DNA of 64,000 nt from a virus (IMGVR_UViG_3300012943_000028:240642-304641); one strand, 5' to 3'. Shown: positions 11,016-44,489, numbered from the stretch's first letter. Translations and numbers: made by a program. Notes: generated from the sequence alone by a model not told the origin.

Positions 11016-12605
11016 ATGTACATCGTACAATGGACTAGCAAGGACCTAGAGTCAATCCCTGGAAAGGAGGATGTCTCTATCGCTGATGGTGCCCTTGACA
11101 CATCAACAACATCGCTCGTCCTGACCGGAAGCTTCCCACAGGATAACTTCCTGCGCCTCCTTGAGAACTTTGCATCAGCAAATGAACCAGCAAACCCAAC
11201 CATCGGCCAAATCTGGTTCGACTATGACAACAACCAGCTCAAGGTCTATGACGCAACGCAGTCATGGGCTGCCATTGGTGGAGGAGGCGGTGGTAGCGTG
11301 AACTCGGTTGCCGTTGCATCGTCAACGATCTCGGTCTCTGGCTCGCCAATTACGTCAAGCGGCACGATCACAATCAACCTTCCAGCTTCTGGCGTTACCG
11401 CTGGCTCGTACACCCTTTCGAACATCACGGTAGACGCATATGGTCGCATCACCGCTGCAAGCAACGGTTCTGCTGGATCAGGTACGGTCACGTCGGTCGG
11501 CGTCTCTGGCAACAACGGCATCAGCGTATCTGGCTCGCCAGTTACCTCAAGCGGTACGATCACTATCGGCCTTGGTGCCATCACTCCAACTTCTGTCGCA
11601 GCATCAGGTGCCGTTACCGGCAGCAACCTTTCTGGTACGCACAGTGGCTCATCATCAGGCACCAACACTGGTGACCAGACCATCACGCTTACTGGTGACG
11701 TAACCGGTTCAGGCACTGGCTCGTTTGCTACAACACTTGCCACGGTCAACGCTAACGTTGGCTCATTCACGAACGCCAACATCACCGTCGACGCCAAGGG
11801 CCGCATCACCGCAGCCGCCAACGGCTCGTCAGGTACTAGCTTCCCACTGCTTGCCCCAGATGGATCAGCCGCTGCACCATCGTACGCATTCGCTTCACAG
11901 ACCGGCATGGGTTGGTCGCTGCTCACGAGCTCAGCAATGCGCTTCTCGATCGGTGGCGTGTCGAATGGTTACTTCTCTGGTGGTGTCAACGCTGATGGTG
12001 CGCTGAACCTCAACCAGAACGGTTCGGCAACTCGCGCATACGTTAGTTGCGGTGGTGGTGGTGGCCACTCAACGCAGCTTGTCGATGACGCATCGGAAAG
12101 TCGTGGCTCCATCCGCAGCACGCGTTCAGAGCTCGCATTCGCACCAAGCTTCTCAGGCAGCACGAACGGTACGTTCATGCTCAAGGCCAACGAGGTCTAC
12201 CTCCCAACTGGCCTTGGTACGACAGCATCAGCCGCAAACGCATTCATCAACGCAAGCTCATCACCAGCTAACCAGCTGCTTCGTTCAACGTCGTCGATCC
12301 GCTACAAGCAGGACGTTGAGAACGTAACGGCTGAAGAAGCTGACGCCGTTCTTGAGCTTCAGCCTGTAACGTACTCTAGCAAGTGTGAGGCAGATGATCC
12401 AGCAAAGCGCTGGTACGGTCTCATCGCTGAAGACGTTTATGCTGTCGATCAGAAGCTCGTGCACTACATCAACATTGATGATGAGCTGGTACCAGACGGT
12501 GTTCAGTACGACCGTCTGACCGTACTGCTGCTTGACGTGGTCAAGCGCCAGAACGCAAGGATCGAAGCGCTTGAGGCAGCTGTCGCCGCCCTTCAGAATC
12601 CGTAA
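11016..12605 (+). CDS. tail fibre protein with C-terminal intramolecular chaperone (peptidase S74-like) domain
   Basis: Gly/Ser/Thr-rich repeats (VSGSP(I/V)TSSGTITI, ITVDA(Y/K)GRITAA). The C-terminal SSIRYKQDVENV...YGLIAEDV is typical of auto-cleaving chaperone domains of tail fibres and endosialidases. Confidence 0.8.
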   Translation: MYIVQWTSKDLESIPGKEDVSIADGALDTSTTSLVLTGSFPQDNFLRLLENFASANEPANPTIGQIWFDYDNNQLKVYDATQSWAAIGGGGGGSVNSVAVASSTISVSGSPITSSGTITINLPASGVTAGSYTLSNITVDAYGRITAASNGSAGSGTVTSVGVSGNNGISVSGSPVTSSGTITIGLGAITPTSVAASGAVTGSNLSGTHSGSSSGTNTGDQTITLTGDVTGSGTGSFATTLATVNANVGSFTNANITVDAKGRITAAANGSSGTSFPLLAPDGSAAAPSYAFASQTGMGWSLLTSSAMRFSIGGVSNGYFSGGVNADGALNLNQNGSATRAYVSCGGGGGHSTQLVDDASESRGSIRSTRSELAFAPSFSGSTNGTFMLKANEVYLPTGLGTTASAANAFINASSSPANQLLRSTSSIRYKQDVENVTAEEADAVLELQPVTYSSKCEADDPAKRWYGLIAEDVYAVDQKLVHYINIDDELVPDGVQYDRLTVLLLDVVKRQNARIEALEAAVAALQNP

Positions 12606-15095: not shown

Positions 15096-15721
15096 TGAAA
15101 CTTCATGAGGTTGCTGGTGCAAGCAAGCGCAGCGGAACGCTGTACGTGTTTGACATCGATGATACGCTGTTCCGCACTACGGCGCAGGTACGTGTCATCA
15201 AAGATGGTGAGCCACCAAAAACTCTAACCAGCCAGGAATTCAATGACTACAAGCTCAAACCTGGTGAACGCTTCGACTACGGTGAGTTCGTTGACGCAGA
15301 GAAGTTCAACACAGAGAGCAAGCCGATCCCAAAGATGATTCAGACGCTAGTGCGAGTGCACGACAAGGTCAAGCTGAACCTTACGCCTGGCTCAAAGGTG
15401 ATCATCAGCACCGCACGTGGCATCCTTGACGATCAAGACACCTTCGACGACACGTTCAGGTATCACGGCATCGACATCGACAACATTGAGGCCAACCACG
15501 CCGAGCATGGTAAGGGGTCGTCGCCGGCAGAACGCAAGAACTCTGTTGCTCGACGCTACCTCAGCGCACATGATTACGATGCGTGCTACATGTACGACGA
15601 CAGCAAGACCAACCTTACGTACTTTCTACAGCTGAAGCACGAATTTCCTGAGGTAGATTTCAGGGCCTTCATCATTAATGATGAAGGCGAGATGCATCAG
15701 TTTACCGCTGAAGCTCGCTGA
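15095..15721 (+). CDS. HAD-superfamily hydrolase (phosphatase)
   Basis: YVFDIDDTLF matches HAD motif I (DxDxT). Confidence 0.65.
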   Translation: MKLHEVAGASKRSGTLYVFDIDDTLFRTTAQVRVIKDGEPPKTLTSQEFNDYKLKPGERFDYGEFVDAEKFNTESKPIPKMIQTLVRVHDKVKLNLTPGSKVIISTARGILDDQDTFDDTFRYHGIDIDNIEANHAEHGKGSSPAERKNSVARRYLSAHDYDACYMYDDSKTNLTYFLQLKHEFPEVDFRAFIINDEGEMHQFTAEAR

Positions 15722-16505
15722 GCAACGGTTCAACCTTCTGCCAAAACGCATCGGCCACCTGAGAGTGGAACTCTGGGCCACGATGGTGGCCATCTCTTGC
15801 GCACGTTTCCTTGTGGTGTTTTGGAAAATCTACCCACTCTATCTGAGGAAATTTTTCCTTCAACACTTCCATGTTGTCAACGGCCGTTGAAAGCGTCTTT
15901 GCTCCCCACAGCTCACACACGGTGCTCATCAACCGCATGCTTCTGATGGATTGGTTGGTGAAGAAGTACCGATCAGTAAAGACTGGCATGAGTGTCTCGT
16001 TGATCACGGCCGGGTAGTTTGATAGATCATTCGGTGAGAAGTGAAATTCTCTGCTTGCCTTGAATGAGAAGTCTCTCCAGAAGAAGGCAGGAAGCCAGCT
16101 CAGCACAAGCTTTGGGCGCATCTTAAGGTGAGTGTGAGCATAGTAGATTTCAGATGCCACTGTGTCCACAGAAGCGCCAGACACAGATAGGTTCCAGTAC
16201 GGAATCTTCTTACCTGTCGCAGCCCTGATCCTTTCAAGCAGCACGTAAGCCCACACCTTCTCAAGTGGGAGGCCTACACCTTCAGTGTGGCTGCAACCAA
16301 CGAAGATGATTGGCAGCTCAGATGGGTCGGTGAACTCATCACAGCGTAGGCCTTCACTGTTAAAGTTGTAAGTGATATCGCCTGGCTTGAATTGATTTGG
16401 ACCGTAGAAGGTCTCTTCCTTGTAGTTTTCAAGCGTGTCAAGGCTGTGCCATTCCGTGGTGCACGCTTTTTGCTTCGTGAACCAGAACAGCGGATGCACG
16501 TTCAT
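15702..16505 (-). CDS. SGNH/GDSL-like hydrolase paralog 1
   Basis: IIFVGCSHTEGVG resembles SGNH block I with Ser retained. Strong similarity to the partial plus-strand ORF at 63654-64000 (RAATGKKIP(Y/F)WN). Confidence 0.55.
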   Translation of the reverse strand: MNVHPLFWFTKQKACTTEWHSLDTLENYKEETFYGPNQFKPGDITYNFNSEGLRCDEFTDPSELPIIFVGCSHTEGVGLPLEKVWAYVLLERIRAATGKKIPYWNLSVSGASVDTVASEIYYAHTHLKMRPKLVLSWLPAFFWRDFSFKASREFHFSPNDLSNYPAVINETLMPVFTDRYFFTNQSIRSMRLMSTVCELWGAKTLSTAVDNMEVLKEKFPQIEWVDFPKHHKETCARDGHHRGPEFHSQVADAFWQKVEPLLSELQR

Positions 16506-17047
16506 TAGTAGTCTCGTGGATCGCCAGGAACGACAGCATCAAGCTTACGCTTGATTTCCTGCCAGAGGATTGGAGCGTAGCCCTGCGCATCAACGCCAAC
16601 GTCTAGGCGCCTACGTGTTGGGTCGAATGGAATCGTGTTGTGGCAGTGACCATGTAGATTGTACGAGCCACGGTGTGCCTTATGCCACGTAAGAAGTGGG
16701 TAATGGCACATCGCAACATAGGTGCCTTCGATCGTCTCATGCCAGAGGTCTGGGTAGATTTTCTCGAAGAGGTCTTGTAGCGGCTTCTGGTTACGGATCA
16801 GCTTGTCGTGGTTGCCAAGGATCAGGCGCTTCTTGCCATTCAGGCGGTGCATGATCTGCTTTGCCTCATTAACTTGGCAGAAGAACACGTCACCCAGAAT
16901 GTAGATGATGTCGTCGTACCGGACTCGTGCGTTCCAGTTCTCGATCAACCCTTCATTCATCTCCTGAGCGGAGGCATACGGTCGATCGCAGTATTTGATG
17001 ATGTTTTCGTGTCCGAAATGAAGGTCGGACGTAAAGTAGATGTTCAT
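16505..17047 (-). CDS. calcineurin-like metallophosphoesterase
   Basis: MNIYFTSDLHFGH...GDVF...GNHD metallophosphatase motifs. ORF trimmed to the internal Met. Confidence 0.7.
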   Translation of the reverse strand: MNIYFTSDLHFGHENIIKYCDRPYASAQEMNEGLIENWNARVRYDDIIYILGDVFFCQVNEAKQIMHRLNGKKRLILGNHDKLIRNQKPLQDLFEKIYPDLWHETIEGTYVAMCHYPLLTWHKAHRGSYNLHGHCHNTIPFDPTRRRLDVGVDAQGYAPILWQEIKRKLDAVVPGDPRDY

Positions 17048-17057: not shown

Positions 17058-17834
17058 TTACGAGTCTCTACCGTAGTACCTTGGTGATCCACGTTGTTCT
17101 GGTGATGCTGGTGGCGTGTAGATTTTATGTTCAAGCTCAAAGCATTTTTCAAAGTCTGCAATTGGATCAAGGTGCTGCGTTTCAGGTCTGAGAATAGCGT
17201 ACATGCCAACAGTCGCAACACCTATGTTTATTCCACGCTCCATCAAGAATTTGCCAAGCCCGAGATTTGGATTCTTGAGATGGTCCTTCAGCGACCAAAA
17301 GTATTGAGTTGCGGTGTCCATGATCTGCGCAGGCGCAGCCCAAAATACATCGTCCATGACCATCGCCTCTGGCGGCCGCCACTCACCATTTTCCATGATG
17401 AAAGCGTTTTCGTTCATCGCCTGCTCGACAATGGTGGATAGGAGCTTATATCTTGGGAAGATGATATCAGGCCGCATCTTGACAACAGCATCATACTTCA
17501 CGTTGTTCGATGTCTCGTACTGACGCCTAAACTCTACGCTCTTCATCCAAGAGTAGTAGAGCGCAATCGGTGCGTTCATGCTGCCATGCATGTTTAGAGC
17601 CCTAGCGTTTTCGGCAATGAACACCTTTGGCTTAAGTAGTTCAACGTACCGTGAAATAATTGCAGTAGGCACGACCTCCTCATCTACATCCGACAACGCA
17701 TATCGCCTGTTCGTGTTTGTTGTCCACGTATGAACGAAAAAGTCGATGTCCATATCACCGAAGAACAGCTGCTGGTTTTCTAGCGCCTTCAGGCAGGTAC
17801 GAAGCTGGCCGCTAAAGCAAACTGCGACCTTCAT
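17058..17834 (-). CDS. CxSGQxRT-family protein paralog 1 (unassigned family; possible glycosyltransferase)
   Basis: N-terminal MKVAVCFSGQLRT...FFVHTW; the same architecture as 24848..25642 and 25629..26393. Confidence 0.5.
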   Translation of the reverse strand: MKVAVCFSGQLRTCLKALENQQLFFGDMDIDFFVHTWTTNTNRRYALSDVDEEVVPTAIISRYVELLKPKVFIAENARALNMHGSMNAPIALYYSWMKSVEFRRQYETSNNVKYDAVVKMRPDIIFPRYKLLSTIVEQAMNENAFIMENGEWRPPEAMVMDDVFWAAPAQIMDTATQYFWSLKDHLKNPNLGLGKFLMERGINIGVATVGMYAILRPETQHLDPIADFEKCFELEHKIYTPPASPEQRGSPRYYGRDS

Positions 17835-18841
17835 ACCGTATAGCGATCAAGAAGCTGGAACACGCGCCTCTCTACGTGTTCCTGAAAGTCCTCATGGTCG
17901 TTGATCTTCTCAACGAGGCTTAGGTATTCAGGGTCAGTGAAGTGATAGTGCCCAGCGCAGATCAGCTTGTCGTATGTAGAGAAGGCAGGACCATATTCCC
18001 ACTTCTTCCATTTGCCTGAAGCGGCAACGTGGTCCGTGAAAGCATTCAACCCATCAACAAATCCACAGCGCATTGCTAGATCAACAAGCACCTGAGTCTG
18101 GGCGGCACCGAACTCTGGAGCTACATTGATAGCGTGAACACCAATCGTCTTTCTGTGCTGTACCTCCGCATCACTAATGTAATCAGCGTTGTGCTCCTTT
18201 AGCTTCACCCCATATTTCTCAGCGATGCTGACGAGCTGCTTGACAACCTCTGGGCTAAATGAACCGACCTGCTGGTGGCTCTTTACGAGTGATCCAGTCT
18301 GACCAACAACGTAGCGTGGCATTAGAACGCCTGGATACAGAGATGTGATGAAGCGTACGTCGCTTTCAAACTTTTCAACGCTGACAGCCGTTCCAATGTT
18401 CTCTTCGGTGCCAAACTCATACTCAAGCCACTTTGAACTGAGCATTGAAAGGGAGAACAGCTCTTCGGCGGCTGCATATGGGTCGGGTGCAGCAGATGTA
18501 TCAATGTGAATCAGGTCCATCGCATACATGTCGGTGCTGAGGCTTTGTTTAGTGCGCTCCATCGCCTCCTTGTATGACATGCCCTTTTCTATGTCGTTAA
18601 GGAATGGGCCACAGTGATCACGACACAGCATCACGTGTCCGTCTGGGTCTCTCTCACGAACGTATTGGGCGAAAGTTCTGGTATTGAAGGCACCAACATA
18701 ACCACCACCAAGCTCTGCGCACTCTATCTGGTTGCGTGATGCGATCAGCATGAGCTGGATATTTTTGTGGCGCGCATATTTGATCACAGCGTCGATGATC
18801 TCAACGCTCATTGGTCCTACGCCAACTTCTAGCTTTTTCAT
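17831..18841 (-). CDS. GatZ/KbaZ-family protein (tagatose-bisphosphate aldolase accessory / tagatose-6-phosphate kinase family)
   Basis: ASRNQIECAELGGGYVGAFNTRTFAQYV and CRDHCGPF parallel the GatZ [24 protein letters not shown] and GGDHLGPN regions. Confidence 0.7.
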   Translation of the reverse strand: MKKLEVGVGPMSVEIIDAVIKYARHKNIQLMLIASRNQIECAELGGGYVGAFNTRTFAQYVRERDPDGHVMLCRDHCGPFLNDIEKGMSYKEAMERTKQSLSTDMYAMDLIHIDTSAAPDPYAAAEELFSLSMLSSKWLEYEFGTEENIGTAVSVEKFESDVRFITSLYPGVLMPRYVVGQTGSLVKSHQQVGSFSPEVVKQLVSIAEKYGVKLKEHNADYISDAEVQHRKTIGVHAINVAPEFGAAQTQVLVDLAMRCGFVDGLNAFTDHVAASGKWKKWEYGPAFSTYDKLICAGHYHFTDPEYLSLVEKINDHEDFQEHVERRVFQLLDRYTV

Positions 18842-19299
18842 TCGAGAATCCCCTTGAGGTAGAGGCATGCATCAAGCACTGCACCTTGTCCAGCCTTCGA
18901 CGTAGTAACGAAGTCACTTGCCCAACGTGCCTCCTGTCTTGCAGAGACCGGGCAGATACCAAGAGCAACTGCCTCAAGAACAGGTGCATCGTAGTAGCCA
19001 TCGCCCATGTAGGCAACGCTGTCGAGGCCCAGTCCAGCAACAAAGCCGAGCCTGTCCTGTTCAGATACAAGCGACAGCTTGAAACCGAGGTCGTCCTCAA
19101 TGCGGCGCTTCGTGATCTCAAAACCACGGTGGTCGGCTGTGATGAACTGGATGTTGATCATGTCCTTGATCATCTTTAGACCGTCAGCATCGTGCGGGCC
19201 AAATACCTTGGCCACCTTACCTTCAGCCGTGTAGACGAACGTGCCATCAGTCATGACACCGTCGACGTCAAGGACGAAGTGCTTGAGCTTGTCTTTCAT
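18838..19299 (-). CDS. HAD phosphatase of the KdsC/NeuAc-9-P phosphatase subfamily
   Basis: FVLDVDGVMTDG motif and ~150 aa size match KdsC-type sugar-acid phosphate phosphatases. Confidence 0.7.
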   Translation of the reverse strand: MKDKLKHFVLDVDGVMTDGTFVYTAEGKVAKVFGPHDADGLKMIKDMINIQFITADHRGFEITKRRIEDDLGFKLSLVSEQDRLGFVAGLGLDSVAYMGDGYYDAPVLEAVALGICPVSARQEARWASDFVTTSKAGQGAVLDACLYLKGILE

Positions 19300-20092
19300 T
19301 GAAGGCCTCTGTCATTGCATTTACCGGTGCTGGTGTGCCGGTGTAAAGTCCAAATTGTTCCATGGCACCGTACAGCGCCATGATTGAGCCGTTGAAAGCA
19401 GGTATCCCAAGCTTTCTTGCAGTAATCACCGTAGGGGAATCATTCACTCCGAGATCGAGAAGCTTGTGCGTTCTCAGCAGCTCGATACCAAGCAGCTCAC
19501 CATTCATACCAACTGGGGTGCAGTTGATCATGGTGCCGTAGATGTCTTCTGCCCAAAGTTCATCGTGAGTTTCCCTGTTCCACTTTTCCTCAATGAAGGA
19601 ATCTTTGGATGGGTCTTTGATTCTACCTCGCACCCACACAGAAACATCGCTGTAAGCGCTAAGGCACTCGAGCACCGCCCTAGCCGCACCACCAGAACCG
19701 AAGACGTGTATCTTGTCGCCAAGCTTGACGTCAGCTACATCGAGCAGTTTTGAAAATCCAATCAGGTCAGTGTTGTAGCCGTAGAGCTTGCCATTTCGAT
19801 TGACGACTGTATTTACCGCCCCAATTTTGACAGCTGAATCATCAATCCAATCGAGGTAGTCTAGGACCTCAACCTTGAATGGCATTGAGATGCTGGCACC
19901 ACGAATGTCGAAGGTCTTCATCTGCAGCATGGCGCGCTTGATGTTGTCTTCTGAGCAGGCAAGGTACTTGAAGTCTAGACCACGTGCCTTGTAGCCGGCA
20001 CTATGGACCGTCATTCCTAGATTTCCAGGGTTCGAGCTCAGTGAAATACAGAGCTCAGATTTCCCAGCCATTTTAACTGCTTCAAGCAAGTT
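19268..20092 (-). CDS. shikimate/quinate dehydrogenase-like oxidoreductase (AroE fold)
   Basis: ISMPFKVEV...GAVNTVV...GYNTDLIGF parallels the AroE motifs (NVTvPfK, avNT, GyNTDg.G); Rossmann GSGGAARA. Confidence 0.6.
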   Translation of the reverse strand, partial: NLLEAVKMAGKSELCISLSSNPGNLGMTVHSAGYKARGLDFKYLACSEDNIKRAMLQMKTFDIRGASISMPFKVEVLDYLDWIDDSAVKIGAVNTVVNRNGKLYGYNTDLIGFSKLLDVADVKLGDKIHVFGSGGAARAVLECLSAYSDVSVWVRGRIKDPSKDSFIEEKWNRETHDELWAEDIYGTMINCTPVGMNGELLGIELLRTHKLLDLGVNDSPTVITARKLGIPAFNGSIMALYGAMEQFGLYTGTPAPVNAMTEAFNERQAQALRP

Positions 20093-21596
20093 CATTGAGT
20101 CTCTCCAGTGCCAAGCTGAAAAGCAGCTTGTCAAATGGGGCAGCGTGCAGTGGCGCCATGTTTAGGAAGATGATGGTAGTAATCTGATCAATGAGTGGGC
20201 TAGGGAAACGCTGTCTAAGGCTCGCGGCCAGCTCATCATGATGGCGGCTGTGGTAAAAGTTGAACCATACGCTGTCACCGTTCTCATCGAACATGAAGCG
20301 GTTCTGCTTGACTGTTGAGTAGTCAAGTATGATTCCACCTAGAAGCTTTGCGGCGTCATAGTACAGGTCTCCAACGAGTAGCTCACCAGCAAAGTCCTGT
20401 CGCCAGTCGAGCAGCGTAAATGAAGGGCCCTGCGTATCCGGGAATGAGCACACAATGTTGTCGAACTGTAGATCACCATGGATGAAGGTCGAGCGCTGTT
20501 CGAGGTCGCTGTTGCAGATGCTCTTCCAATCTATCAGCTGAAGCGCGTTGTCAATGTCAACCTTCATTCGGTTTCCATTGATGAACTTTGGGTTGAAGTT
20601 TGGGTATTTCTCCCTGAACATCGCTAGGCGCTTCATCGTCTTCGTGTGATAGAAGTCGGTGCAGTGGGAGGCAGCTAACTGCCGTCCGAGGTTGTGCCAT
20701 ACGCGAAAGTCTAGGAACGCTAGCAGCTCATCAAAGATGTGAGCGTCAATAATTGGGTAGAGCGTCTGACCAGAAACGAACTTGTAAGTGTAGAAGCGTT
20801 CCTTATGCTTCACGATCTTTGGGAAGATGCCTGGAGAGTATGCGGCTCTACGCACACGATCTTCTGCGATCTCGTGGTTCTTGAACCACTTAATGACGTT
20901 GTCACCAACTATCCACAAGAACTCATCTGTCTTTGAGAAGTCGTATGGAGAGTTCTGAAGGTAAAAGCGCTGGTACTTTTCAAACGTGCCGAGGTCTACC
21001 CACTTGAGCGGGAACCCATGAACGTCAAGCCCTGACCATCCAGATGAGAGCTCTACATCACCAAGGTTGGCCCAAAACTGGTCCGTGTCTTTGATGTAGA
21101 AGGCACCATTGACGGCGAGACCTGAATCACAGTAGCGCTTGTCAACGATCTTCGTAATCCGGCCGTCGTACATCTCAACGTTGCAGTATGCTGGTGAGTC
21201 TGCTACGTCGACGTTGGATACACCAACGTAGTTCTTATCCGTTGGGATATCGTTAAGCCCTTCGTAGTAGGCATCGCAGGCGATCAGATAGAATGGTCCG
21301 CTGATCACACGATGACAGCGACGAAGGGAATGAGCTGGTCCAGAGTTTGGACCATCGTAGTTGTTGACCAACACGAATGAGAACTTCGTGTTCGGATGTG
21401 CGAGCTCTAGATACGTTCTAACGTCTTGACTGAGGAACCCAAGCGCAACCACGAACTGCGTTGAGCTGTCAAACTGCTCAATGATGTGAGAGATGATTGC
21501 CTTGTCGTTGACAGGAAGCAGTGTCTTGTTGATGACGCCAGCATACTTGCCCATGCGGCTGCCAATACCAGCGGTAAGAAGAACGACGGTCTTCAT
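20082..21596 (-). CDS. bifunctional sugar-phosphate nucleotidyltransferase / APH-family kinase
   Basis: N-terminal VLLTAGIGSRMG nucleotidyltransferase signature. C-terminal IHGDLQFDNIV is the HGDxxxxN motif of aminoglycoside/choline/sugar kinases. The layout resembles LicC-LicA or HddC-HddA type sugar-activation pairs. Confidence 0.75.
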   Translation of the reverse strand: MKTVVLLTAGIGSRMGKYAGVINKTLLPVNDKAIISHIIEQFDSSTQFVVALGFLSQDVRTYLELAHPNTKFSFVLVNNYDGPNSGPAHSLRRCHRVISGPFYLIACDAYYEGLNDIPTDKNYVGVSNVDVADSPAYCNVEMYDGRITKIVDKRYCDSGLAVNGAFYIKDTDQFWANLGDVELSSGWSGLDVHGFPLKWVDLGTFEKYQRFYLQNSPYDFSKTDEFLWIVGDNVIKWFKNHEIAEDRVRRAAYSPGIFPKIVKHKERFYTYKFVSGQTLYPIIDAHIFDELLAFLDFRVWHNLGRQLAASHCTDFYHTKTMKRLAMFREKYPNFNPKFINGNRMKVDIDNALQLIDWKSICNSDLEQRSTFIHGDLQFDNIVCSFPDTQGPSFTLLDWRQDFAGELLVGDLYYDAAKLLGGIILDYSTVKQNRFMFDENGDSVWFNFYHSRHHDELAASLRQRFPSPLIDQITTIIFLNMAPLHAAPFDKLLFSLALERLNELA

Positions 21597-22288
21597 TTGT
21601 GCTCGCTTTCAATCCTACCATTTCCACGGTTAGCATCGTCCTGAACACGAATGACATCATCAAGGTGCGGTGTCGACACCTCAAAGAGGTGGAGGTCAGT
21701 GTTAGCACGAAGACGGTGAATCGTGTTTGGCGTAACGTGCAGACAGACAGGACCATTGAAGCTGCTTTCACCGAGGTCTGCCTTGGTTACAGCATCGTTC
21801 TGTGCTTCACGGTTTGCCTTGAACACGAGCGTAACGTTGCCGCTCTCAATAAGGTTTGTCTCTTCCTTGAAGTTGTGGTACTGAAGGCTCGTCTGATTTC
21901 CAGCCTTGATGAAGATCTTCTTTGCACAGTACCTGTCATTGTCTTTAGTCAACCACAGCTCATAGCCCCAAGGCTTCACAACTTTGTAGTGAACACCAGC
22001 TCTGGTTATGGTGAGGTAGTTGAGCGGCGCATCGTGTGATGCTACCTGAGCAACGTATATTTGGCCGTTACCAATGAGAAGCACCTCACGGTTCTTGACG
22101 TCGATCGTATCACCAGCCTCTACCTTCAATTTGTCAGAGGCTATTGTAAATGAGCCGCTGATGACGTAGATCGTGCGCTCTACTTCACCAGCAAAATACA
22201 CCTCATCCTTCACGTTTGACGAGTAGAAGAGATACGCGCCGTTCGCATACACGTGATCGGCCGTTGTTGGTTGGAGTATCTTGATCAT
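21593..22288 (-). CDS. cupin-domain protein (phosphosugar isomerase-like)
   Basis: VVKPWGYELWL and a second cupin-like beta-barrel core (bicupin). Confidence 0.6.
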   Translation of the reverse strand: MIKILQPTTADHVYANGAYLFYSSNVKDEVYFAGEVERTIYVISGSFTIASDKLKVEAGDTIDVKNREVLLIGNGQIYVAQVASHDAPLNYLTITRAGVHYKVVKPWGYELWLTKDNDRYCAKKIFIKAGNQTSLQYHNFKEETNLIESGNVTLVFKANREAQNDAVTKADLGESSFNGPVCLHVTPNTIHRLRANTDLHLFEVSTPHLDDVIRVQDDANRGNGRIESEHK

Positions 22289-22369
22289 TTGTAGATGTAC
22301 GGGTCTCGTTTACGAATCTCTTTCATCTTCTTCCAGTATCGAATCTTCGAGCGGATTCGATAGATGATG

Positions 22370-23164
22370 TCACGGAAGAACTGCATGATCGTCTCCTAAA
22401 ATACCACGTGCCTTGAGTTCCTGCACCATGTGATCCGCCCATGCAACATGTGTGCTTGGTGTAGGGTGAATGCACTTGGTCAGTTCCAGCTTGTTGTCAT
22501 ACACCCACTTCATGCATGACTCGTTGAGGTTCATGATGCTAGTGTCGATGAGCTCTGGCAGCATGTGAGCGAGAGCCGGCTTGTATTCACCTTTCTTGTA
22601 CACAGCAAGCGATTCCAAGTTTGGAAGCGCCGAGAAGAACAGGAACTTTACACCCTGCGTTCTCAGGAAGGACTTGAGCATCACAACCTGCTTGAGAAAG
22701 GTGTCCATCGCCGAATAGAACTCGTACACTTCAGCCACAAACATCTGGTGATATTTATCGAGCTGGCGGGCCTTCTCTTCAGTCATTGAATAGCCAGAGC
22801 CGCTGTAGAAGCCGCTGTACATAGAAAATGGCTGTGCTGCGTTGAATCTGAACCAACGATCTGATGGGTCGGCGGCCTTGCGCTCGAAACCCTCGACGTA
22901 AATTTCACCACGCTCAATCGTTGACCAGCCAATGATGACCAGGAGGTTCTTCCTTTCCTCTGGCGGAAGGTTGAGCACGTAGTCGATCGTCATTCTGTAC
23001 ATGCGCGCATTGCTGCCGCCGCCCGCTGCCTGGTTGACATGTGTGATGTTTAGCTTACGAGCTAGAACGGTTGGCCAGCAATGGTCGCGAACCTTACCAC
23101 CCCATGCGGCTGTGCCATCACCGTTCGCCCAGCTGCATCCGTTTGTGTAGAGCTTGTTGATCAT
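22370..23164 (-). CDS. SGNH/GDSL-like hydrolase paralog 2
   Basis: LYTNGCSWANGDG N-terminal block I-like motif; similar to 23949..24848. Confidence 0.5.
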   Translation of the reverse strand: MINKLYTNGCSWANGDGTAAWGGKVRDHCWPTVLARKLNITHVNQAAGGGSNARMYRMTIDYVLNLPPEERKNLLVIIGWSTIERGEIYVEGFERKAADPSDRWFRFNAAQPFSMYSGFYSGSGYSMTEEKARQLDKYHQMFVAEVYEFYSAMDTFLKQVVMLKSFLRTQGVKFLFFSALPNLESLAVYKKGEYKPALAHMLPELIDTSIMNLNESCMKWVYDNKLELTKCIHPTPSTHVAWADHMVQELKARGILGDDHAVLP

Positions 23165-23952
23165 TTGACTAGCTTCCTGTAGAGCTCTTCAGCAACAATC
23201 GCGTGCGCTTCTTCAGATGCGTGCATGCTGCCGATCTTGTCTGGATATTTCTGTGAGAGGCCGAACCAGTTCATTGAGTGAATCTCATCAGCCGGCACGA
23301 GGTCAAGCAGCAGTGGATCATTAGAAAGAATGACGCACTTGATGCCACGCTTCTTTGCGTAGAGGTATGACTTGAGTAGCACACCAACGTCGTAGTTGCG
23401 CTTGATGTCACCGTTTAGAATTTCGACGTAGTACTGACACATGCGCTTGAGCTTCTCAATCGGCTCAGTGTGTAGGCGCTTATAGTAGTGAATGGCGCCC
23501 TGCACATTGGAGCTCTTTTCTCTCTCACGCACCTTGATGTAGTCATCGATACCACCTACCTGTTCCGTGAGGAGACAAGGATCATACTCGCTCTTGTTCA
23601 GGAAGTGATGGTCGAATGGGTTCTTGTTTGCCTCTGGATTGTGGTGTGGTGGGTAGAGATGGTAGTTGATGTGCCGTGCCTCAAGTGGGAATCGCTGTGT
23701 CTTACCCTCCTCGATCCACTCAATACGGTCATAGCTCGTGGTGCCGATGACGATGAGGTCGGGTTTTGGGTCCATCCTTGCAGCGTACTCTACTTGAAGG
23801 TGGACGGCAAAGTTGCTTGCGCTTCCTCTTGCGAGCGTTACGAGCTCTGCTCCGAGCTTCTGCGCAAGCAGCACACCGTACGGCTGTGTCTGAAGGTCCA
23901 GCACGCCGATGCCACAGTTGAAGCTGTCACCGCATACGACTATCTTCTTCAC
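23161..23952 (-). CDS. SGNH/GDSL-like hydrolase paralog 3
   Basis: IVVCGDSFNCGIGV contains the GDS(F) block I motif. Confidence 0.55.
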   Translation of the reverse strand: MKKIVVCGDSFNCGIGVLDLQTQPYGVLLAQKLGAELVTLARGSASNFAVHLQVEYAARMDPKPDLIVIGTTSYDRIEWIEEGKTQRFPLEARHINYHLYPPHHNPEANKNPFDHHFLNKSEYDPCLLTEQVGGIDDYIKVREREKSSNVQGAIHYYKRLHTEPIEKLKRMCQYYVEILNGDIKRNYDVGVLLKSYLYAKKRGIKCVILSNDPLLLDLVPADEIHSMNWFGLSQKYPDKIGSMHASEEAHAIVAEELYRKLVK

Positions 23953-24848
23953 TTGAACTTCCTCTCATAGAGATGGTTTGCCCAAGCCTCGTGGCTCTCA
24001 GGGCTTGGGTGCATGTTGATCATTCGAATTGGCTTAGGCACGTTCTCATCGATGAACGACTTGAAGGACCTGAAGTCCAGCTTGTCCAAGAACACATCAT
24101 CTGGAATGCTCTTCCACTGTGCACGAATCCTGTTGATGTCTTGACGGTTGTTCCATGCGCCATCAAGCCAACCATCGAATGGTTCTGCGTGCCAATTGTT
24201 GATCACCAACGAGAGATCACATGGTCTCCAATCATTGAGCGGTGACAGCTTGCCTTTCGGCATGTTTGGAACATAGAAGGAGTTGAAGAAGACGTGCTGG
24301 ATGGCGTTGCTCTTGAGGTAGGTGTGCAGCTGGAAATTCTGCTCAACGAAGCGAGTGATGGCCTCACGCTCATTCCACAGGTGCTGGATGTAGAACTTTG
24401 AGAAGCGCTTCATGACGTCAAGCTTGTAGTACTCATCTTGGATCATGGCTGGCCAGATGGTGTACTGATGAAGCTTGTCGTCAAACCCTTCTATTAGAAT
24501 GTTCTTTCGCTCAAGGCTCGACCAACCAACCACAACAACAAGCTCTGCCGGATCACCACCCTCTGACAGGTACTTCATCACCCAACCCATCGTGCTGTTG
24601 AAGATGGTGTCATTGCTCCTTGCGGGCCAGCTAATGTTGACTGACTTGTAACCGAGCTTGTTCGCAAGGTGCGTGGACCAAATCCTTGGCACTCGGTAGT
24701 AATCATTGTGCGGCTGACAGTCAAGCATGCCCGCCTTGAAGTTCTGAGTCATGCCTTCGCCCTTCTCTCCAGCAGGCACGAGCATGTGCGGGCCAGCTAT
24801 CTCGCTGCCAAATGCCCAGCTATCTCCATTTGTCAAGAGCGTCTTCAT
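23949..24848 (-). CDS. SGNH/GDSL-like hydrolase paralog 4
   Basis: LLTNGDSWAFGSE GDS motif; TAATG coupling to the upstream gene. Confidence 0.6.
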   Translation of the reverse strand: MKTLLTNGDSWAFGSEIAGPHMLVPAGEKGEGMTQNFKAGMLDCQPHNDYYRVPRIWSTHLANKLGYKSVNISWPARSNDTIFNSTMGWVMKYLSEGGDPAELVVVVGWSSLERKNILIEGFDDKLHQYTIWPAMIQDEYYKLDVMKRFSKFYIQHLWNEREAITRFVEQNFQLHTYLKSNAIQHVFFNSFYVPNMPKGKLSPLNDWRPCDLSLVINNWHAEPFDGWLDGAWNNRQDINRIRAQWKSIPDDVFLDKLDFRSFKSFIDENVPKPIRMINMHPSPESHEAWANHLYERKFK

Positions 24849-25642
24849 TAGAAATTCCTATATGCGTCTCTAAGGGCTTCATGGTCTAACGGCCAGTTGA
24901 GGTGCTCTGTACCCAGTCGAACTACAAAAGGTCCGATGTTGCGTGGTATGTCAACCATCTTGATGCACTTGTCGTTGACCCACTTGTACAGCATTACACC
25001 TACACCATAACGATCTAGCGTTGGGTTTCTTGTGCTGTTGTAGTTGTGTAAAGCATGGAAACGACGGTTGCTGTAGTAGTGCCAAAACCCATCAATCATC
25101 GTCATCACACGACTGCTACCATAGTAGAAGATGTCATCGATGCATGGCTGTCGATATTCAAACGCAAACGAATTGCGTGAACAGTAAACGGTGTCTGGCT
25201 CGATGACGTCAGGTATCGTGAGATCAACGTATGCGTGAGGTGAACACGCAAAGTCAAAGCGCACATGGTAGACCATGTCGAATGACCTACCAGTTTCGAT
25301 CTCGTACTGTGTCTTGAGGTGCATTGACTTGGCGCTGCTTTTGAGCATCGCTGACCACGGAAGAACCTTTCCACCATTGATGAACTGGTGTATCTGCTCA
25401 TCTATTATGAGGCGCTCAAAATTGAATGCAGCCTGCAGCTCTTCACGAAGTGTTTCTACACAGAGCTTTTCAGTAGTTCCAGGATGATCACTGCTAGCCC
25501 GCCAGGTATTTTCGTCCCACGTATGGCCAAAGAACTTCACATCAGCCTTAAGACTGTTGAAGAAGCGCTTGATAGCCGGTAGAGCCGTCTTCCACGTACG
25601 GCTCTGTCCGCTCATGCACACTGCGATGCTATACTGTTTCAT
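24848..25642 (-). CDS. CxSGQxRT-family protein paralog 2
   Basis: Internal start MKQYSIAVCMSGQSRT...FFGHTW aligns with the other two paralogs. The ORF-track N-terminal extension overlaps the upstream paralog. Confidence 0.5.
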   Translation of the reverse strand: MKQYSIAVCMSGQSRTWKTALPAIKRFFNSLKADVKFFGHTWDENTWRASSDHPGTTEKLCVETLREELQAAFNFERLIIDEQIHQFINGGKVLPWSAMLKSSAKSMHLKTQYEIETGRSFDMVYHVRFDFACSPHAYVDLTIPDVIEPDTVYCSRNSFAFEYRQPCIDDIFYYGSSRVMTMIDGFWHYYSNRRFHALHNYNSTRNPTLDRYGVGVMLYKWVNDKCIKMVDIPRNIGPFVVRLGTEHLNWPLDHEALRDAYRNF

Positions 25643-26393
25643 ACTGCTCCAGCTTTCCAGCTCGTGCAAGATGCTCAGCATCACGCATGATCTTGAAGTC
25701 AATGTGTGGTAGCGGAACATTGTCTACGCCGATTGAAGCGCAGTAGTAGAAGAGCGCAAGCTCTGGTGGAAAGATTGGCTCACTAGGCATCACAGACAGC
25801 GCGTCGATATACCTAAAGCTGTCATAGAACATGGCGATGTGGTCATACGTCAGGCTGTCCGACATGAAGAAGATGTCACCAATGCGCATCACGCCATTCG
25901 TTGCATCGATGGAATTGTGAACAGAATGGATAGTCGATGGCAGCATAGTGTCTGCACGCACTGGTGATGTGAACCCACCAGAAAAGAAAAGGTCGGACCG
26001 CAGTCTGACAACAACATCATACTCGAAGTCGTTTTCCATCTCGTGCTCGCGCTTCAGCGTGGCTGCACGCCACAGGCTGTAGAACTGCTCATGAGCAAAC
26101 CATGAGACGACGTTTGTTGGGCCAGTCTGCGAGACGTCCTTCTTGCTCTCGAACAAGAACTTCTTCGGCTTCAAGGTGCTGACGATGCGAGCCTTCTCAT
26201 CTTCAGACAGCGGAATTTCCTTAGGCCTACCGTCTATGAACTCAGCCCTTAGCTGAGGATGACTGTTGTAATCCCACAGGTGGAAGAACAGGTCAACCTC
26301 GCCCATGTTTCCTAGGGCTTGATACCATGAGGCATAGCACTTTTCCCAAGTGCGGGCTTGACCACTGAGGCAGAAGGCGATTCTTGAAGTCAT
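25629..26393 (-). CDS. CxSGQxRT-family protein paralog 3
   Basis: MTSRIAFCLSGQART...LFFHLWD; shared YD.VV..R.D..F central block. Confidence 0.5.
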   Translation of the reverse strand: MTSRIAFCLSGQARTWEKCYASWYQALGNMGEVDLFFHLWDYNSHPQLRAEFIDGRPKEIPLSEDEKARIVSTLKPKKFLFESKKDVSQTGPTNVVSWFAHEQFYSLWRAATLKREHEMENDFEYDVVVRLRSDLFFSGGFTSPVRADTMLPSTIHSVHNSIDATNGVMRIGDIFFMSDSLTYDHIAMFYDSFRYIDALSVMPSEPIFPPELALFYYCASIGVDNVPLPHIDFKIMRDAEHLARAGKLEQYETV

Positions 26394-26495: not shown

Positions 26496-26894
26496 TTACA
26501 GCGCCTTTGCGATCGCCGCGGCGATCTCCACCTGCGTGCCGGCGGCCGGCACCTTCACGTTGAACTTCTCGGCGGTCTTCAGCAGCTTCGGCATGTTCGA
26601 CGGGTGGACGGCGATGCCGCTGCCCGACTTCACCGACGCCAGCCACTTGGGACCGAACTGGAAGCCACGCTTGCCCTCGTTGTGCACGACCTTGCTGCGG
26701 TACTTGGCGACGCGCAGCTGGCCGCCGTTCTTGGCGATCTTGGCCAGGTACTTCGCCACGACTTCACCCAGGCGCTTGAACGAGCGGACTTCGTTCTTCT
26801 TGATCAGTTCACGGGCGGCGGCTTCGTCGCTCACGCCCAGGGAAGCGGCCTTCAGGACCAGATCACCAACTTTCGGCTGATTGCTCATTGTCAT
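26496..26894 (-). CDS. hypothetical protein (FGPKW-family paralog A)
   Basis: 132 aa; shares FGPKW..SVK.G.GIA.H with 26926..27372. Confidence 0.5.
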   Translation of the reverse strand: MTMSNQPKVGDLVLKAASLGVSDEAAARELIKKNEVRSFKRLGEVVAKYLAKIAKNGGQLRVAKYRSKVVHNEGKRGFQFGPKWLASVKSGSGIAVHPSNMPKLLKTAEKFNVKVPAAGTQVEIAAAIAKAL

Positions 26895-26925: not shown

Positions 26926-27372
26926 TCACAGCTTCGGGCTCAGCATCTCGCAGAGCTCGAGGTCAGTGTACTTCTCGGGATTCTTCAAGCCGAGCACCAC
27001 GCGAGCGTGGTGGTCCAGCTTTTCCTTGTCGTGCAGGGCGATGCCCTTGCCACGCTTCACGCTGTCGTTCCACTTGGGACCGAAGGCGTAGCGGCGGCCG
27101 TTTGGAGCCGGCACTTCACAGCGCTTGCCCTTGATCGACGACTTGATCTTGAGGACGCGCGGGCCCTGCGGCTTCTGCTCTTCCTCGACGATCGGCCCTT
27201 CGGCCTCGACGACCGCTGCGGCAGCCATCACCTGCTTGCGGAAGGTGCGGTCGAGAAGATCGACGTTCACCTCGACCGGCAGCTTGCGTTCGATTCGACG
27301 AAGCAGCGCCAGTGCAGCGGGATTTCCGGCATCGTACGGCAGCTTCGTGATCTTTGAGATTTCCTGCAGCAT
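26926..27372 (-). CDS. hypothetical protein (FGPKW-family paralog B)
   Basis: 148 aa; the AFGPKWNDSVKRGKGIALH block is shared with the adjacent gene. Confidence 0.5.
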   Translation of the reverse strand: MLQEISKITKLPYDAGNPAALALLRRIERKLPVEVNVDLLDRTFRKQVMAAAAVVEAEGPIVEEEQKPQGPRVLKIKSSIKGKRCEVPAPNGRRYAFGPKWNDSVKRGKGIALHDKEKLDHHARVVLGLKNPEKYTDLELCEMLSPKL

Positions 27373-27450: not shown

Positions 27451-27708
27451 CTAGGCGACAGGGAAGAGGTGGAACGAATAGATGTTGGCCGTGGGTGCGT
27501 CCTTCTTCCACGGTTCTGTCTGCTTGCCGTAGAGGAAGACGCGCCGTGACTCGATCTTGATCGTCACCATCTTCTTACCGATGCCCTTCACCACACCAAC
27601 AACGACCGTGCCGAAGCCATTGGCGGTGCTGGAATATCCGTACTTCTTTCCGATCTCAACCGGATTTCCGAGGGCGTCTACCTGTTCCATGTCAGCTCCT
27701 GTTTCCAA
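27451..27708 (-). CDS. hypothetical protein
   Basis: 85-aa ORF; the start is possibly the internal MEQVDAL. Confidence 0.4.
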   Translation of the reverse strand: METGADMEQVDALGNPVEIGKKYGYSSTANGFGTVVVGVVKGIGKKMVTIKIESRRVFLYGKQTEPWKKDAPTANIYSFHLFPVA

Positions 27709-28327
27709 GGTTGGCGTATTCGGCCTGAGCTGCCTGAATCAGCTTGCTCAAGTGCGGCAGCTTGATCTGAGAGTTGGAATACCAGATCGCTGCTGGATTC
27801 GGGTGTGTTGCGACGTCGAGCCTGTCCTGAAGCGACATGCGATTTCCCTTCTTCTCGTTACAGCGCCGGCACATGCACTGTGCGTTCTCGATGGTGTTGG
27901 CACCTTCACGGGAACGTGGAAGCACGTGGTCCCACGTCATCATGACGTGGTGACCGTCCTTGTCGATGGCGTAGAGGTTCACGCTGAACGGCATGACGCT
28001 GTCGTTCTTGTGACGCTCGATGCGGAAGTAGGAGCCTTGCAGCCCGCACTTGACGCACTTCGTTTGACCGCTGGCGAACATGTGCACGCGCACGTTGGCC
28101 TTCTTCTGTGTGTTCTCGACGATGAAGCCGTTCAGCTTCCGCCATGGCTGCTTCCTGATGTAGTCGATGCCCTCTTCGAAGGTCATCTGCTTCAGGAGCA
28201 CCATGCTGTCGAGCATCCGCTTCCAGCGGCTGTCGTTGCGCTTGTTGGCCCTGTCCAGGCTCATGAACTTCTTGGCCGAGATCAGGCCAGGAATTGAGTG
28301 CTGGTACGGCTCGCGTTCGACATCCAT
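27692..28327 (-). CDS. HNH endonuclease
   Basis: DHVLPRSREGANTIENAQCMCRRCNEKKGN is a canonical HNH motif with a zinc-binding Cys pair. Confidence 0.8.
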   Translation of the reverse strand: MDVEREPYQHSIPGLISAKKFMSLDRANKRNDSRWKRMLDSMVLLKQMTFEEGIDYIRKQPWRKLNGFIVENTQKKANVRVHMFASGQTKCVKCGLQGSYFRIERHKNDSVMPFSVNLYAIDKDGHHVMMTWDHVLPRSREGANTIENAQCMCRRCNEKKGNRMSLQDRLDVATHPNPAAIWYSNSQIKLPHLSKLIQAAQAEYANLGNRS

Positions 28328-28515
28328 TAGGCGGCCTCGACCTCATGACGGTTCGGGCGGTGCGGCCGGTGACCCTGCTTCTTCTTTGCGACACGGCCAC
28401 GGTTGTCGTCGTCGAAGCGCTGCTTCTTCGGCATGCGCTCGAAGCTGCCGACTTCGTCAGTGTCTTCATCGAGGAGCAGGTTGCGGAGGTTGGCGTTCAT
28501 CGTAATGTCCTTCAT
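28327..28515 (-). CDS. small basic protein (~62 aa)
   Basis: ORF trimmed to the internal Met MKDITMNANL; Lys/Arg-rich C-terminus. Confidence 0.35.
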   Translation of the reverse strand: MKDITMNANLRNLLLDEDTDEVGSFERMPKKQRFDDDNRGRVAKKKQGHRPHRPNRHEVEAA

Positions 28516-28835
28516 CAGATGGTGTTGAGAGTGTAGAGGCCCGTCTTCTTCAAACGCGTTTCGATGGCATGGGCCTCGGATTTGCCACGAACGAACTGCA
28601 AGATGCGGGTGGTGAAAGACTTGGCACCGTGCATGCGAATTGACTCGCACAGCCTCCAGTCCTTGTCGTGAAGCATGGCACGGCCAATGTGGCGTGTCCA
28701 GCGTGAAGCGAGTGATTTCTTTCCGGACCGATCGGTCCGAACGGTCAGGCCGACGTACTCCTCGCCAGTCACGAGGTTCGTCAGCACGTAGATCAGGTGT
28801 ACCCTGTCCGACCGGCGCTTTCGAGAAGTCTTCAT
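28515..28835 (-). CDS. GIY-YIG nuclease-domain protein
   Basis: HLIYVLTNLVTGEEYVGLT matches the GIY-x10-YIG motif. ATG at 28835 lies 7 nt downstream of the predicted -10 (possibly leaderless). Confidence 0.65.
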   Translation of the reverse strand: MKTSRKRRSDRVHLIYVLTNLVTGEEYVGLTVRTDRSGKKSLASRWTRHIGRAMLHDKDWRLCESIRMHGAKSFTTRILQFVRGKSEAHAIETRLKKTGLYTLNTI

Positions 28836-28842
28836 GGAGGCC

Positions 28843-28918
28843 ATTCTATCACAGCCCCGGGGAATGTACACAGGTCAGCCCGTTATGTTAACTTGACTGA
28901 CCGGACCGTTATGTAAAA
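28843..28918 (-). promoter_or_regulatory. conserved phage promoter motif copy 5 (two TTATGT half-sites)
   Basis: Minus strand reads CCATTTTACATAAC...GTTAACATAAC-N9-CCTGTGTAC-N17-TAGAAT. Confidence 0.5.
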
Positions 28919-35238: not shown

Positions 35239-35534
35239 GCTTGATCGGTTGAAAGAGCGGAATTTAGAAATTCATCAAGGTCTGCCTGTGCAGGCAGCCA
35301 CGACTTGTCTGTTTTTATTGAGCGTGCCCATTGAACACGCATGAACATATTGTAACACACTCTGAAAATCTGTTCGTCCTTGATGCTGCGTGGCATCAAG
35401 GCTAGCACCTCTTCAGGGTGAATTGGCAGCCAGCTGTTGTCCTTTCGAAACTTGCGCAGGACCTTCAAATTTTCAAGGGTCTCTGCGCAGGCATCGATCT
35501 CAGCTTGCGACAGCCTGCTGTTCCTCTTCTCCAT
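35235..35534 (-). CDS. hypothetical protein (~99 aa)
   Basis: ORF trimmed to the internal Met MEKRNSRLSQ; the upstream extension has an abnormal composition. Confidence 0.4.
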   Translation of the reverse strand: MEKRNSRLSQAEIDACAETLENLKVLRKFRKDNSWLPIHPEEVLALMPRSIKDEQIFRVCYNMFMRVQWARSIKTDKSWLPAQADLDEFLNSALSTDQA

Positions 35535-44151: not shown

Positions 44152-44489
44152 GATTTTCTCCTGAGGTATGCCATCTTGTGTGGGCCTGCAGGCATGGCCT
44201 CGATTTCCCACGTAGCTTCCATCTCATCTAGCTGAGAGCGCCAGCACTTCAGCACCTCAACATCATTTGGTTTGCGATGGAAGAAGTAGAGCTCCATGTC
44301 ACCAACAGATGACTTGTAGTCTTCAATCCGTTTGGCGGCTGTCGCCTTAGCCTTCTCAACATCGCCATGATGTACGATGGTGTAGAACTCGACTGCCTGC
44401 TCAAAGGTCATCTCATGGTCAGCAAGATAGTCGCCGGTGCTCGGCGTGAGATTGCCAATCCAGGACTCGAAGGCGGTGATCAGCTTCAT
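44148..44489 (-). CDS. hypothetical protein
   Basis: ORF trimmed to the internal Met MKLITAFESW. Confidence 0.4.
   Translation of the reverse strand: MKLITAFESWIGNLTPSTGDYLADHEMTFEQAVEFYTIVHHGDVEKAKATAAKRIEDYKSSVGDMELYFFHRKPNDVEVLKCWRSQLDEMEATWEIEAMPAGPHKMAYLRRKS

Follow-up and report, generated by a model that had tools for sequence, protein, structure and literature searches.

What do three related genes that share a CxSGQxRT signature and stand beside sugar-activation enzymes do for the virus that carries them? The genes lie in a 64,000-nucleotide stretch of viral DNA (IMGVR_UViG_3300012943_000028:240642-304641), called the window here. Counting positions along the window, we named them paralog A (17058-17834), paralog B (24848-25642) and paralog C (25629-26393); all three are on the minus strand. 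The source contig (ena:ERZ27256383:k141_1506902) is 358,285 bp long, and the virus is therefore a jumbo phage. Judged by predicted fold, conservation and gene neighborhood, the three proteins are probably glycosyltransferases (GTs). We put at about even the chance that they are soluble cytoplasmic enzymes of the GT-A fold which build a decorated glycan on a virion protein, either fibre or capsid.

Results

Three diverged paralogs with shared motifs

A sequence-only reading of the window had described three genes sharing motif blocks, and this was confirmed. The open reading frames (ORFs) encode paralog C (254 amino acids; the first gene of the cassette described below), paralog A (258 amino acids; at the far end of the sugar module) and paralog B (264 amino acids; the most divergent copy). 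In pairwise BLASTP, A and C are 30% identical (E 9e-17), A and B are 31% identical (E 4e-14), and B and C are 24% identical (E 7e-10), the lowest of the three pairs. By these E values the homology is well above chance.

The start of B was placed at 25642. The ATG there has GGAG 5 nucleotides upstream, and the resulting protein is 100% identical over 264 amino acids to database protein P0118. A longer reading of B (to 25720) was rejected as a real gene on these same two grounds. B overlaps the stop end of C by 14 nucleotides, in agreement with the slight overlap that had been claimed for the adjacent copies.

Conservation was calculated from 316 distinct domains, which were taken from database matches and related loci and aligned to the family hidden Markov model. 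The motifs AxCxSGQxRT, DxFxHTW, YDxVxKxRxD and DD are 93–99% conserved. In the first block the values are 98% for A4, 96% for C6, 97% for G9 and 99% for R12; in the second they are 93% for D31, 96% for F33, 97% for H35 and 98% for W37. Later positions are conserved to the same degree (Y114 94%, D115 93%, R121 99%, D123 99%, D162 94%). Paralog C shows the CxSGQxRT, HxW, RxD and D motifs. The third block, described earlier as common to all three genes, is present in A and C, but in B (FDMVYHVRFDFAC) it is degenerate and D, R and D alone remain. B keeps the motifs VRFD and IDD.

The adjacent genes B and C had been taken for a recent tandem duplication, which would make them young and possibly redundant copies. 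Adjacency and the 14-nucleotide overlap would fit such an origin. However, B and C are the most diverged pair, and each has separate orthologs in distant viruses at 29–47% identity: C-type orthologs are 37–47% identical in L002, L022, L014, L012, L060 and L006, and B-type orthologs are 29–41% identical in distant viral contigs. In 29 of 82 related loci carrying the family, the set used for all neighbor counts below, a B-type gene comes immediately after a C-type gene. These results refute the recent duplication, to which we leave practically no probability. At least two family copies were found in 61 of 83 sources, with a range of 2 to 9 (seven in L005 and nine in L008). On sequence evidence A, B and C are ancient, distinct orthogroups that travel together. 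Since these old groups have been kept together, we argue that their roles are non-redundant.

An almost purely viral family

All three proteins match the phrog_13607 profile significantly (A, E 1.3e-14; B, E 4.8e-7; C, E 6.1e-14), and the PHROG entry is listed as function unknown. C scored 20.4 bits against Pfam DUF7796 (PF25072), below the gathering cut-off of 27 bits, and A and B gave no DUF7796 match in Pfam. Among 29 homologs, 16 match DUF7796. There are also tandem proteins in which an S-adenosylmethionine (SAM) methyltransferase, a bona fide DUF7796 domain (100–124 bits) and a CxSGQxRT-family domain occur together, and some relatives of the three paralogs carry a fused SAM or sugar C-methyltransferase domain. 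The best reading of these matches is that A, B and C form a divergent branch of DUF7796 within PHROG 13607.

Scanned against Pfam, NCBIfam and PADLOC, the three proteins matched no characterised family and no glycosyltransferase model. PDB sequence and profile searches gave chance matches only (bacterioferritin and KdpD). A word-indexed homolog search with the family alignment returned only proteins named "hypothetical protein", the label given in every source that names them, and literature searches for DUF7796, DUF6071 and the cassette gene combination found nothing.

The family comprises 8,897 cluster representatives (50% identity) at E≤1e-3 and 4,118 at E≤1e-10. In IMG/VR, at least 343 stretches code for relatives. 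When 185,579 species genomes of bacteria and archaea were scanned with strict patterns, the family turned up in only 2, both of them metagenome-assembled genomes (MAGs); because the patterns were stricter, this count is a lower bound. The contrast between viruses and cells is qualitative only, since the search patterns of the two scans differ. On these counts the family is almost purely viral.

An Acidimicrobiaceae MAG contig of 271 kb (L086) carries two family genes and a kinase/nucleoside triphosphate (NTP)-transferase fusion. Their neighbors are a SIS isomerase, a ribulose-phosphate 3-epimerase, a sugar C-methyltransferase, an epimerase, a TylF-like methyltransferase and a GT2 enzyme. The contig may be cellular, which would be a rare case for the family, or it may be a virus that was binned in error.

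Predicted fold and active site

The AlphaFold2 model of A has a mean predicted local distance difference test score (pLDDT) of 87.3 and a predicted template modelling score (pTM) of 0.87. The model of B (pLDDT 89.9, pTM 0.90) has its elements in the same order. The A model is a single Rossmann-like alpha/beta/alpha domain with GT-A topology, and a Foldseek search with it found GT6 and GT31 enzymes. Its nearest viral-model neighbors scored E 1e-14 to 1e-10 with TM 0.6–0.68. From giant viruses these are proteins of Catovirus, Tupanvirus and Fadolivirus, a "DUF7796 domain-containing protein" of Sylvanvirus, a CroV "glycosyltransferase" and a chlorovirus protein; from cyanophages they are S-SKS1 and S-PRM1 proteins.

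The predicted fold is clearly that of GT-A or nucleotide-diphospho-sugar transferases. The sequence-only reading could assign the signature to no named family of glycosyltransferases, sulfotransferases or methyltransferases. That view fails at the level of fold because the model shows GT-A; it holds for characterised sequence families, although the proteins are catalogued as PHROG 13607 and related to DUF7796. Its further suggestion of transferases in a sugar context stands in part: the proteins are transferase-like and belong to an uncharacterised family, but their fold is known and their duplication is not recent.

Rossmann-like folds bind the nucleotide at the C-terminal ends of the strands, and GT-A enzymes carry a metal-binding DxD at the C-terminal end of strand 4. 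In the A model, strand 1 (residues 2–9) ends in the SGQxRT loop and strand 2 (29–37) ends in HTW. Strand 4 (116–120) is followed at once by R121-P-D123, and D161-D162 lies just before the strand 164–168. R12, H35/W37 and R121-x-D123 therefore lie where strands 1, 2 and 4 end on their C-terminal side, or immediately beyond, as read from the secondary structure of the model rather than from a superposition. The DxD position is taken by R121-P-D123, in which R and D are each 99% conserved. From this invariant RxD and the invariant R12 nearby, we infer that arginines, not a metal, stabilise the diphosphate leaving group and that catalysis is metal-independent. C6 lies inside strand 1, where a structural role is more likely than a catalytic one.

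The same fold is used by other enzymes such as sugar-1-phosphate nucleotidyltransferases, and A, B and C might belong to one of these groups or be non-catalytic scaffolds. The SGQxR loop after strand 1 recalls the GxGTR loop of nucleotidyltransferases, and the missing DxD points the same way. However, a dedicated NTP-transferase is already encoded in the cassette. The presence of 2–9 diverged paralogs per locus and the sugar-methyltransferase fusions are typical of glycan-building transferases, and the near-invariant polar residues argue for catalysis. We regard this alternative as improbable and prefer glycosyltransferases. Cyanophage homologs of the family are located between annotated glycosyltransferases and nucleoside diphosphate (NDP)-sugar pyrophosphorylases.

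Gene content and order of the cassette

The three genes belong to a cassette spanning 15.7–26.4 kb of the window, which also holds four SGNH/DUF6071 genes and a five-enzyme sugar-activation module, all on the minus strand. In same-strand order, C and B are followed by three SGNH-type genes. The first (23949-24848) encodes an SGNH-like DUF6071 protein with an N-terminal GDSW (Pfam PF19547, E 4.8e-17; homologs in 48 loci), the second (23161-23952) a GDSL/SGNH-like protein with an N-terminal CGDSF (weak Pfam Lipase_GDSL match, E 1.5e-3; 39 loci), and the third (22370-23164) another SGNH-like DUF6071 protein with an N-terminal NGCSW (PF19547, E 7.5e-21; 50 loci).

The sugar module comes next. It starts with a cupin of the type II phosphomannose-isomerase-like group, presumed to be a sugar-phosphate isomerase (21593-22288; Pfam MannoseP_isomer, E 1.9e-6; 30 loci). 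An NTP-transferase/APH-kinase fusion with AfhE-like architecture follows (20082-21596; Pfam NTP_transf_3 at residues 4-109 and APH at 267-419; 30 loci). The remaining enzymes are a shikimate-dehydrogenase-family oxidoreductase (19268-20134; NCBIfam models to E 7e-45, below their cut-offs; 24 loci), a KdsC-like sugar-phosphate phosphatase of the haloacid dehalogenase (HAD) type (18838-19299; NCBIfam TIGR01670, E 1e-16, below cut-off; 9 loci at 48–54% identity) and a GatZ/KbaZ-like protein of the class II aldolase/epimerase family (17831-18868; Pfam GatZ_KbaZ-like, E 7.9e-6; 23 loci).

Paralog A closes the module. Beyond it are a metallophosphoesterase (16505-17047; Pfam Metallophos_2, E 2.9e-4) and the last cassette gene, which encodes a fourth SGNH-like protein with a GCSHT motif (15702-16505; weak Pfam Lipase_GDSL match, E 8e-3; 25 loci). 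The metallophosphoesterase is 88% identical in a sister phage, where cassette genes are 31–56% identical, and among the 82 loci it was found only there. By this pattern it probably belongs to the core genes of the phage and not to the cassette.

The cassette is nearly colinear, gene for gene, in L006, L007, L009, L013, L060 and other loci, at 27–54% amino-acid identity. All four core sugar genes are present in 16 loci, and at least one SGNH-type gene in 59. The location of the family among sugar-activation genes, noticed in the sequence-only reading, is thus strongly supported and conserved, both by co-occurrence across the loci and by gene order. A promoter and terminator scan of the cassette found sites no more numerous than in shuffled sequence, and operon boundaries were for this reason drawn from the gene overlaps only.

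Two paralogous small basic proteins are encoded immediately upstream of paralog C (26496-26894 and 26926-27372, minus strand; isoelectric points 10.4 and 9.6). They share an FGPKW...SVK.G.GIA.H block and are 83–86% identical in the sister phage. Outside the cassette, a Ro60/TROVE and vWA domain protein (phrog_850, "RNA-binding protein") is encoded at 54627-56390 (minus strand). The source contig carries, close by, a peptide deformylase, a release-factor fragment, a dihydrofolate reductase and an NT5C nucleotidase.

Probable mobility and modular exchange

The GC content of the cassette is about 0.50, compared with 0.55–0.57 in the flanks. In Xanthomonas phage X1, the nearest isolate, no such cassette adjoins the topoisomerase genes, and a megablast search of phage genomes with the cassette DNA gave no match. 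In the INPHARED collection, the kinase fusion was found in one record only, an unannotated contig of a single-cell-derived marine virus with a partial cassette, and the full cassette was found in no cultured phage.

The sister phage (L002/L004/L092, from the same sample ERZ27256383) shares flanking core genes at 63–91% identity, compared with 31–56% for the cassette genes. In this phage the five-gene sugar module is swapped for an NTP-transferase, an unknown protein, a 3-dehydroquinate-synthase-like protein and a short-chain dehydrogenase/reductase, and the orthologs of A, B and C stay. This points to modular exchange within the cassette. A horizontally mobile, conserved cassette is the best reading of these data.

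An HNH-type endonuclease ORF (27692-28327, minus strand) flanks the cassette, and its homolog in the sister contig has been called HNH. The ORF in the window is adjoined by one that appears GIY-YIG-like by eye (28515-28871, minus strand). The two could be homing endonucleases that aid the mobility of the cassette.

Proposed pathway

Phages that synthesise UDP-arabinose with AfhE and AfhF convert a sugar 5-phosphate to the 1,5-bisphosphate, then to the 1-phosphate and then to the NDP-sugar (PMC13326640). The cassette has the AfhE/AfhF type of architecture, with an N-terminal nucleotidyltransferase and a C-terminal APH-type kinase in one protein plus a HAD phosphatase; the match is one of architecture only. 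Using tblastn, we found no match of the kinase fusion to RB69 or DLP3 at E≤1e-5.

In the pathway we propose, the GatZ-like enzyme would form a ketose phosphate or epimerise one, and the cupin would isomerise it. The APH-type kinase domain would phosphorylate the sugar at C1, the KdsC-like phosphatase would remove the distal phosphate, and the NTP-transferase domain would nucleotidylate the product to give an activated NDP-sugar. A redox step may be added by the shikimate-dehydrogenase-like enzyme. A, B and C would then act sequentially, each adding one residue or linkage to a growing glycan, and the four SGNH/DUF6071 proteins would attach O-acyl groups or trim them off. To judge by the GatZ-like and shikimate-dehydrogenase-like enzymes, the sugar is an unusual one.

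In L006 (17580-19091) and L013 (15818-17353), the GatZ-like gene has as its next downstream neighbor a carbamoyltransferase gene of the NodU/CmcH type, which suggests that the glycan of these two viruses is O-carbamoylated.

Virion protein as the favored acceptor

Transmembrane segments are absent from all cassette proteins, and most members of the family are acidic (median isoelectric point 5.85). Upstream of the family, 17 loci carry fibre-like ORFs, with an intramolecular chaperone domain of the S74 or G2 type, and ConA-like ORFs, often paired. In the window a fibre gene is 3 kb from the cassette. Giant viruses glycosylate their capsids and fibrils with their own soluble enzymes (PMC9614988). 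We favor a virion-protein acceptor because of the fibre and ConA-like neighbors and because structural relatives of the family occur in giant viruses that build virion glycans.

The fibre gene of the window (11016-12605, plus strand) encodes a tail-fibre-like protein with a Peptidase_S74 chaperone domain. A ConA-like protein with a weak Laminin_G_3 match is encoded at 49142-51148 (plus strand). Homologs of these two genes recur as a pair upstream of the family elsewhere.

Host envelope as a possible acceptor

The cassette might instead remodel a host envelope glycan (lipopolysaccharide (LPS), capsule or S-layer), for example to block superinfection. Such a role was proposed loosely for cyanophage "LPS" gene clusters, and homologs of the family occur in clusters annotated as LPS or capsular polysaccharide; the authors, however, left the function of the cluster open (PMC3037559). 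The Acidimicrobiaceae-attributed contig, with its two family genes in a sugar cluster with GT2 and methyltransferases, would also fit. Against this, the cassette of the window encodes no initiating phosphoglycosyltransferase, flippase, polymerase, ligase or membrane protein, and the family was found in 2 of the cellular genomes compared with at least 343 viral contigs, by differing patterns. As membrane and export functions are missing from the cassette, envelope remodelling is less likely here, and we consider it unlikely overall.

DNA as a possible acceptor

A thymidylate-synthase (ThyA) homolog encoded at 44486-45229 (minus strand) shares 54–57% identity with T-even gp42. Both the catalytic Cys and D169 are retained, and N177D, the signature of dCMP hydroxymethylase, is present. 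Along its active-site stretch the protein hardly differs from an Acinetobacter phage homolog that adjoins annotated glucosyltransferases. From these residues the protein is predicted to be a dCMP hydroxymethylase of the T4 type, and the phage DNA probably contains 5-hydroxymethylcytosine (5hmC). D169N is diagnostic of 5-hydroxycytosine (5hoC) synthase (PMC13326640). The ThyA homolog was rejected as such a synthase on this residue; because D169 is retained, 5hmC rather than 5hoC is the expected product.

A, B and C could therefore be DNA glycosyltransferases that build a sugar chain on 5hmC from the NDP-sugar of the cassette, perhaps with UDP-galactofuranose, and so help the phage evade restriction and CRISPR. 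The window encodes several enzymes that such a pathway would use: in addition to the ThyA homolog, there are thymidylate-kinase-like and guanylate-kinase-like genes and a UDP-galactopyranose mutase (35500-36534, minus strand; Pfam GLF, E 6e-52), which is 9 kb from the cassette and 89% identical in the sister phage. The mutase implies that UDP-galactofuranose is used, a parallel to the cluster for DNA glycosylation in Rhizobium phage RL38J1. Known clusters join a ThyA homolog, a nucleotide kinase, an AfhE-type fusion, a HAD phosphatase and glycosyltransferases, and that of RL38J1 also has the mutase (PMC13326640). DNA glycosyltransferases of GT-A fold exist (bioRxiv 10.1101/2023.12.21.572611), and the cassette proteins are soluble and cytoplasmic.

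However, genomic linkage speaks against DNA. The ThyA homolog is 18 kb from the cassette. It was found within 10 kb in 0 of the 82 family loci, and a family gene was found within 10 kb in 0 of 40 ThyA-homolog loci. Its conserved neighbor within its clade is the gene at 45949-46938, not the CxSGQxRT family. Family members are also present in giant viruses and cyanomyophages, groups that are not known to contain 5hmC. The proteins are mostly acidic, and up to 9 copies with acyl- and carbamoyltransferases imply glycans much larger than any known DNA modification. The R...DDD...EDY/F motifs of GT-A DNA enzymes (Pyle et al.) are absent from the family. A DNA acceptor is the less probable explanation in our view, at perhaps one chance in a handful.

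The gene at 45949-46938 (minus strand; called as 287 amino acids in databases, P0175) is directly upstream of the ThyA homolog in IMG/VR contigs L092-L099. Its product has 296 homologs, all hypothetical, and no Pfam, PHROG or PDB match was found. It is a candidate partner in cytosine modification. As DNA glycosyltransferases, neither this product nor that of 45230-45877, also beside the ThyA homolog, found support: searches of PDB, Pfam and PHROG matched neither, and neither resembles the glucosyltransferases of the Acinetobacter phage.

Discussion

We read A, B and C as glycosyltransferases that decorate a virion protein, and several observations weigh against this. Profile searches gave no sequence-level tie to any CAZy or Pfam glycosyltransferase family, and hhalign of the family profile with a GT2 protein and a cyanophage glycosyltransferase gave probabilities of 0.2% and 3%, which are not significant. 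The canonical DxD is absent from the family, and the shared pocket is predicted from residue placement on secondary structure. The association with fibre genes may merely reflect placement in an accessory region. As the phage encodes a predicted enzyme for the 5hmC precursor, DNA could plausibly be the acceptor instead. The sister phage has a swapped sugar module and keeps orthologs of A, B and C; therefore the three cannot all depend on the product of the adjacent module.

More broadly, and tentatively, we suggest that a virus-restricted GT-A family with RxD for DxD, its DUF6071 SGNH partners and an AfhE-like module form a widespread mobile cassette for an undescribed, acyl-decorated glycan of an unusual sugar. 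In uncultured aquatic phages and giant viruses the virion would carry this glycan; in the jumbo phage described here, 5hmC DNA might carry it instead. In short, we see a DxD-less, virus-dominated GT-A family inside a conserved, unstudied glycan cassette. The cassette recurs with the same gene order in many uncultured aquatic viruses. Knowing what it makes would bring to light either a new glycan pathway encoded by viruses or a DNA hypermodification that is new, and either outcome bears on host recognition by phages, evasion of immunity and defence, and glycoenzyme discovery. The GT-A enzymes could also gain a branch that lacks DxD.

The closest catalogued relatives are DUF7796 and PHROG 13607. 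The phrog_13607 matches of all three paralogs, the DUF7796 matches of homologs and the tandem-domain proteins support this relation. In contrast, A and B do not match DUF7796, C is below threshold, and neither catalogue entry has an assigned function.

Compared with known GT-A enzymes, namely yeast Mnn9 (GT62), the GT2 enzymes hyaluronan synthase, GlfT2 and K4CP, and the GT6 blood-group transferases, the family shows 8–13% identity and no profile-level similarity. It has RxD in place of DxD and signatures of its own, AxCxSGQxRT and HTW. Bacterial GT6 enzymes are a parallel for the loss of DxD. These GT-A enzymes have NxN in place of DxD and are metal-independent, with protein side chains taking the role of the metal (PMC3516806, PMC3961637). 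The likeness is the replaced DxD on a GT-A fold; A, B and C have a different replacement and belong to an unrelated sequence family, and their own metal independence is a prediction from the model.

The arabinosyl-5hoC clusters of RB69, DLP3 and HY126 and the hexosyl-5hoC cluster of RL38J1 resemble the cassette in having an isomerase, an NTP-transferase/APH-kinase fusion, a HAD phosphatase and several glycosyltransferases. Their ThyA homolog, nucleotide kinases and galactopyranose mutase also have counterparts in the same genome here. Their glycosyltransferases adjoin the ThyA homolog and were matched to BshA, MshA and sucrose-phosphate synthase, which have the GT-B fold. In contrast, the transferases of the window are GT-A-like and 18 kb from the ThyA homolog, with no genomic linkage, and the isomerase is a cupin and not a SIS domain.

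The machinery for capsid glycans in giant viruses offers a parallel by description. There, soluble cytoplasmic glycosyltransferases make the virion glycan. A064R of PBCV-1 is composed of two glycosyltransferase domains and a methyltransferase, and its second domain is a cation-independent glycosyltransferase that was missed by sequence annotation (PMC9614988). The fusion to a methyltransferase is shared with relatives of the CxSGQxRT family, and the closest structural neighbors of paralog A are giant-virus proteins.

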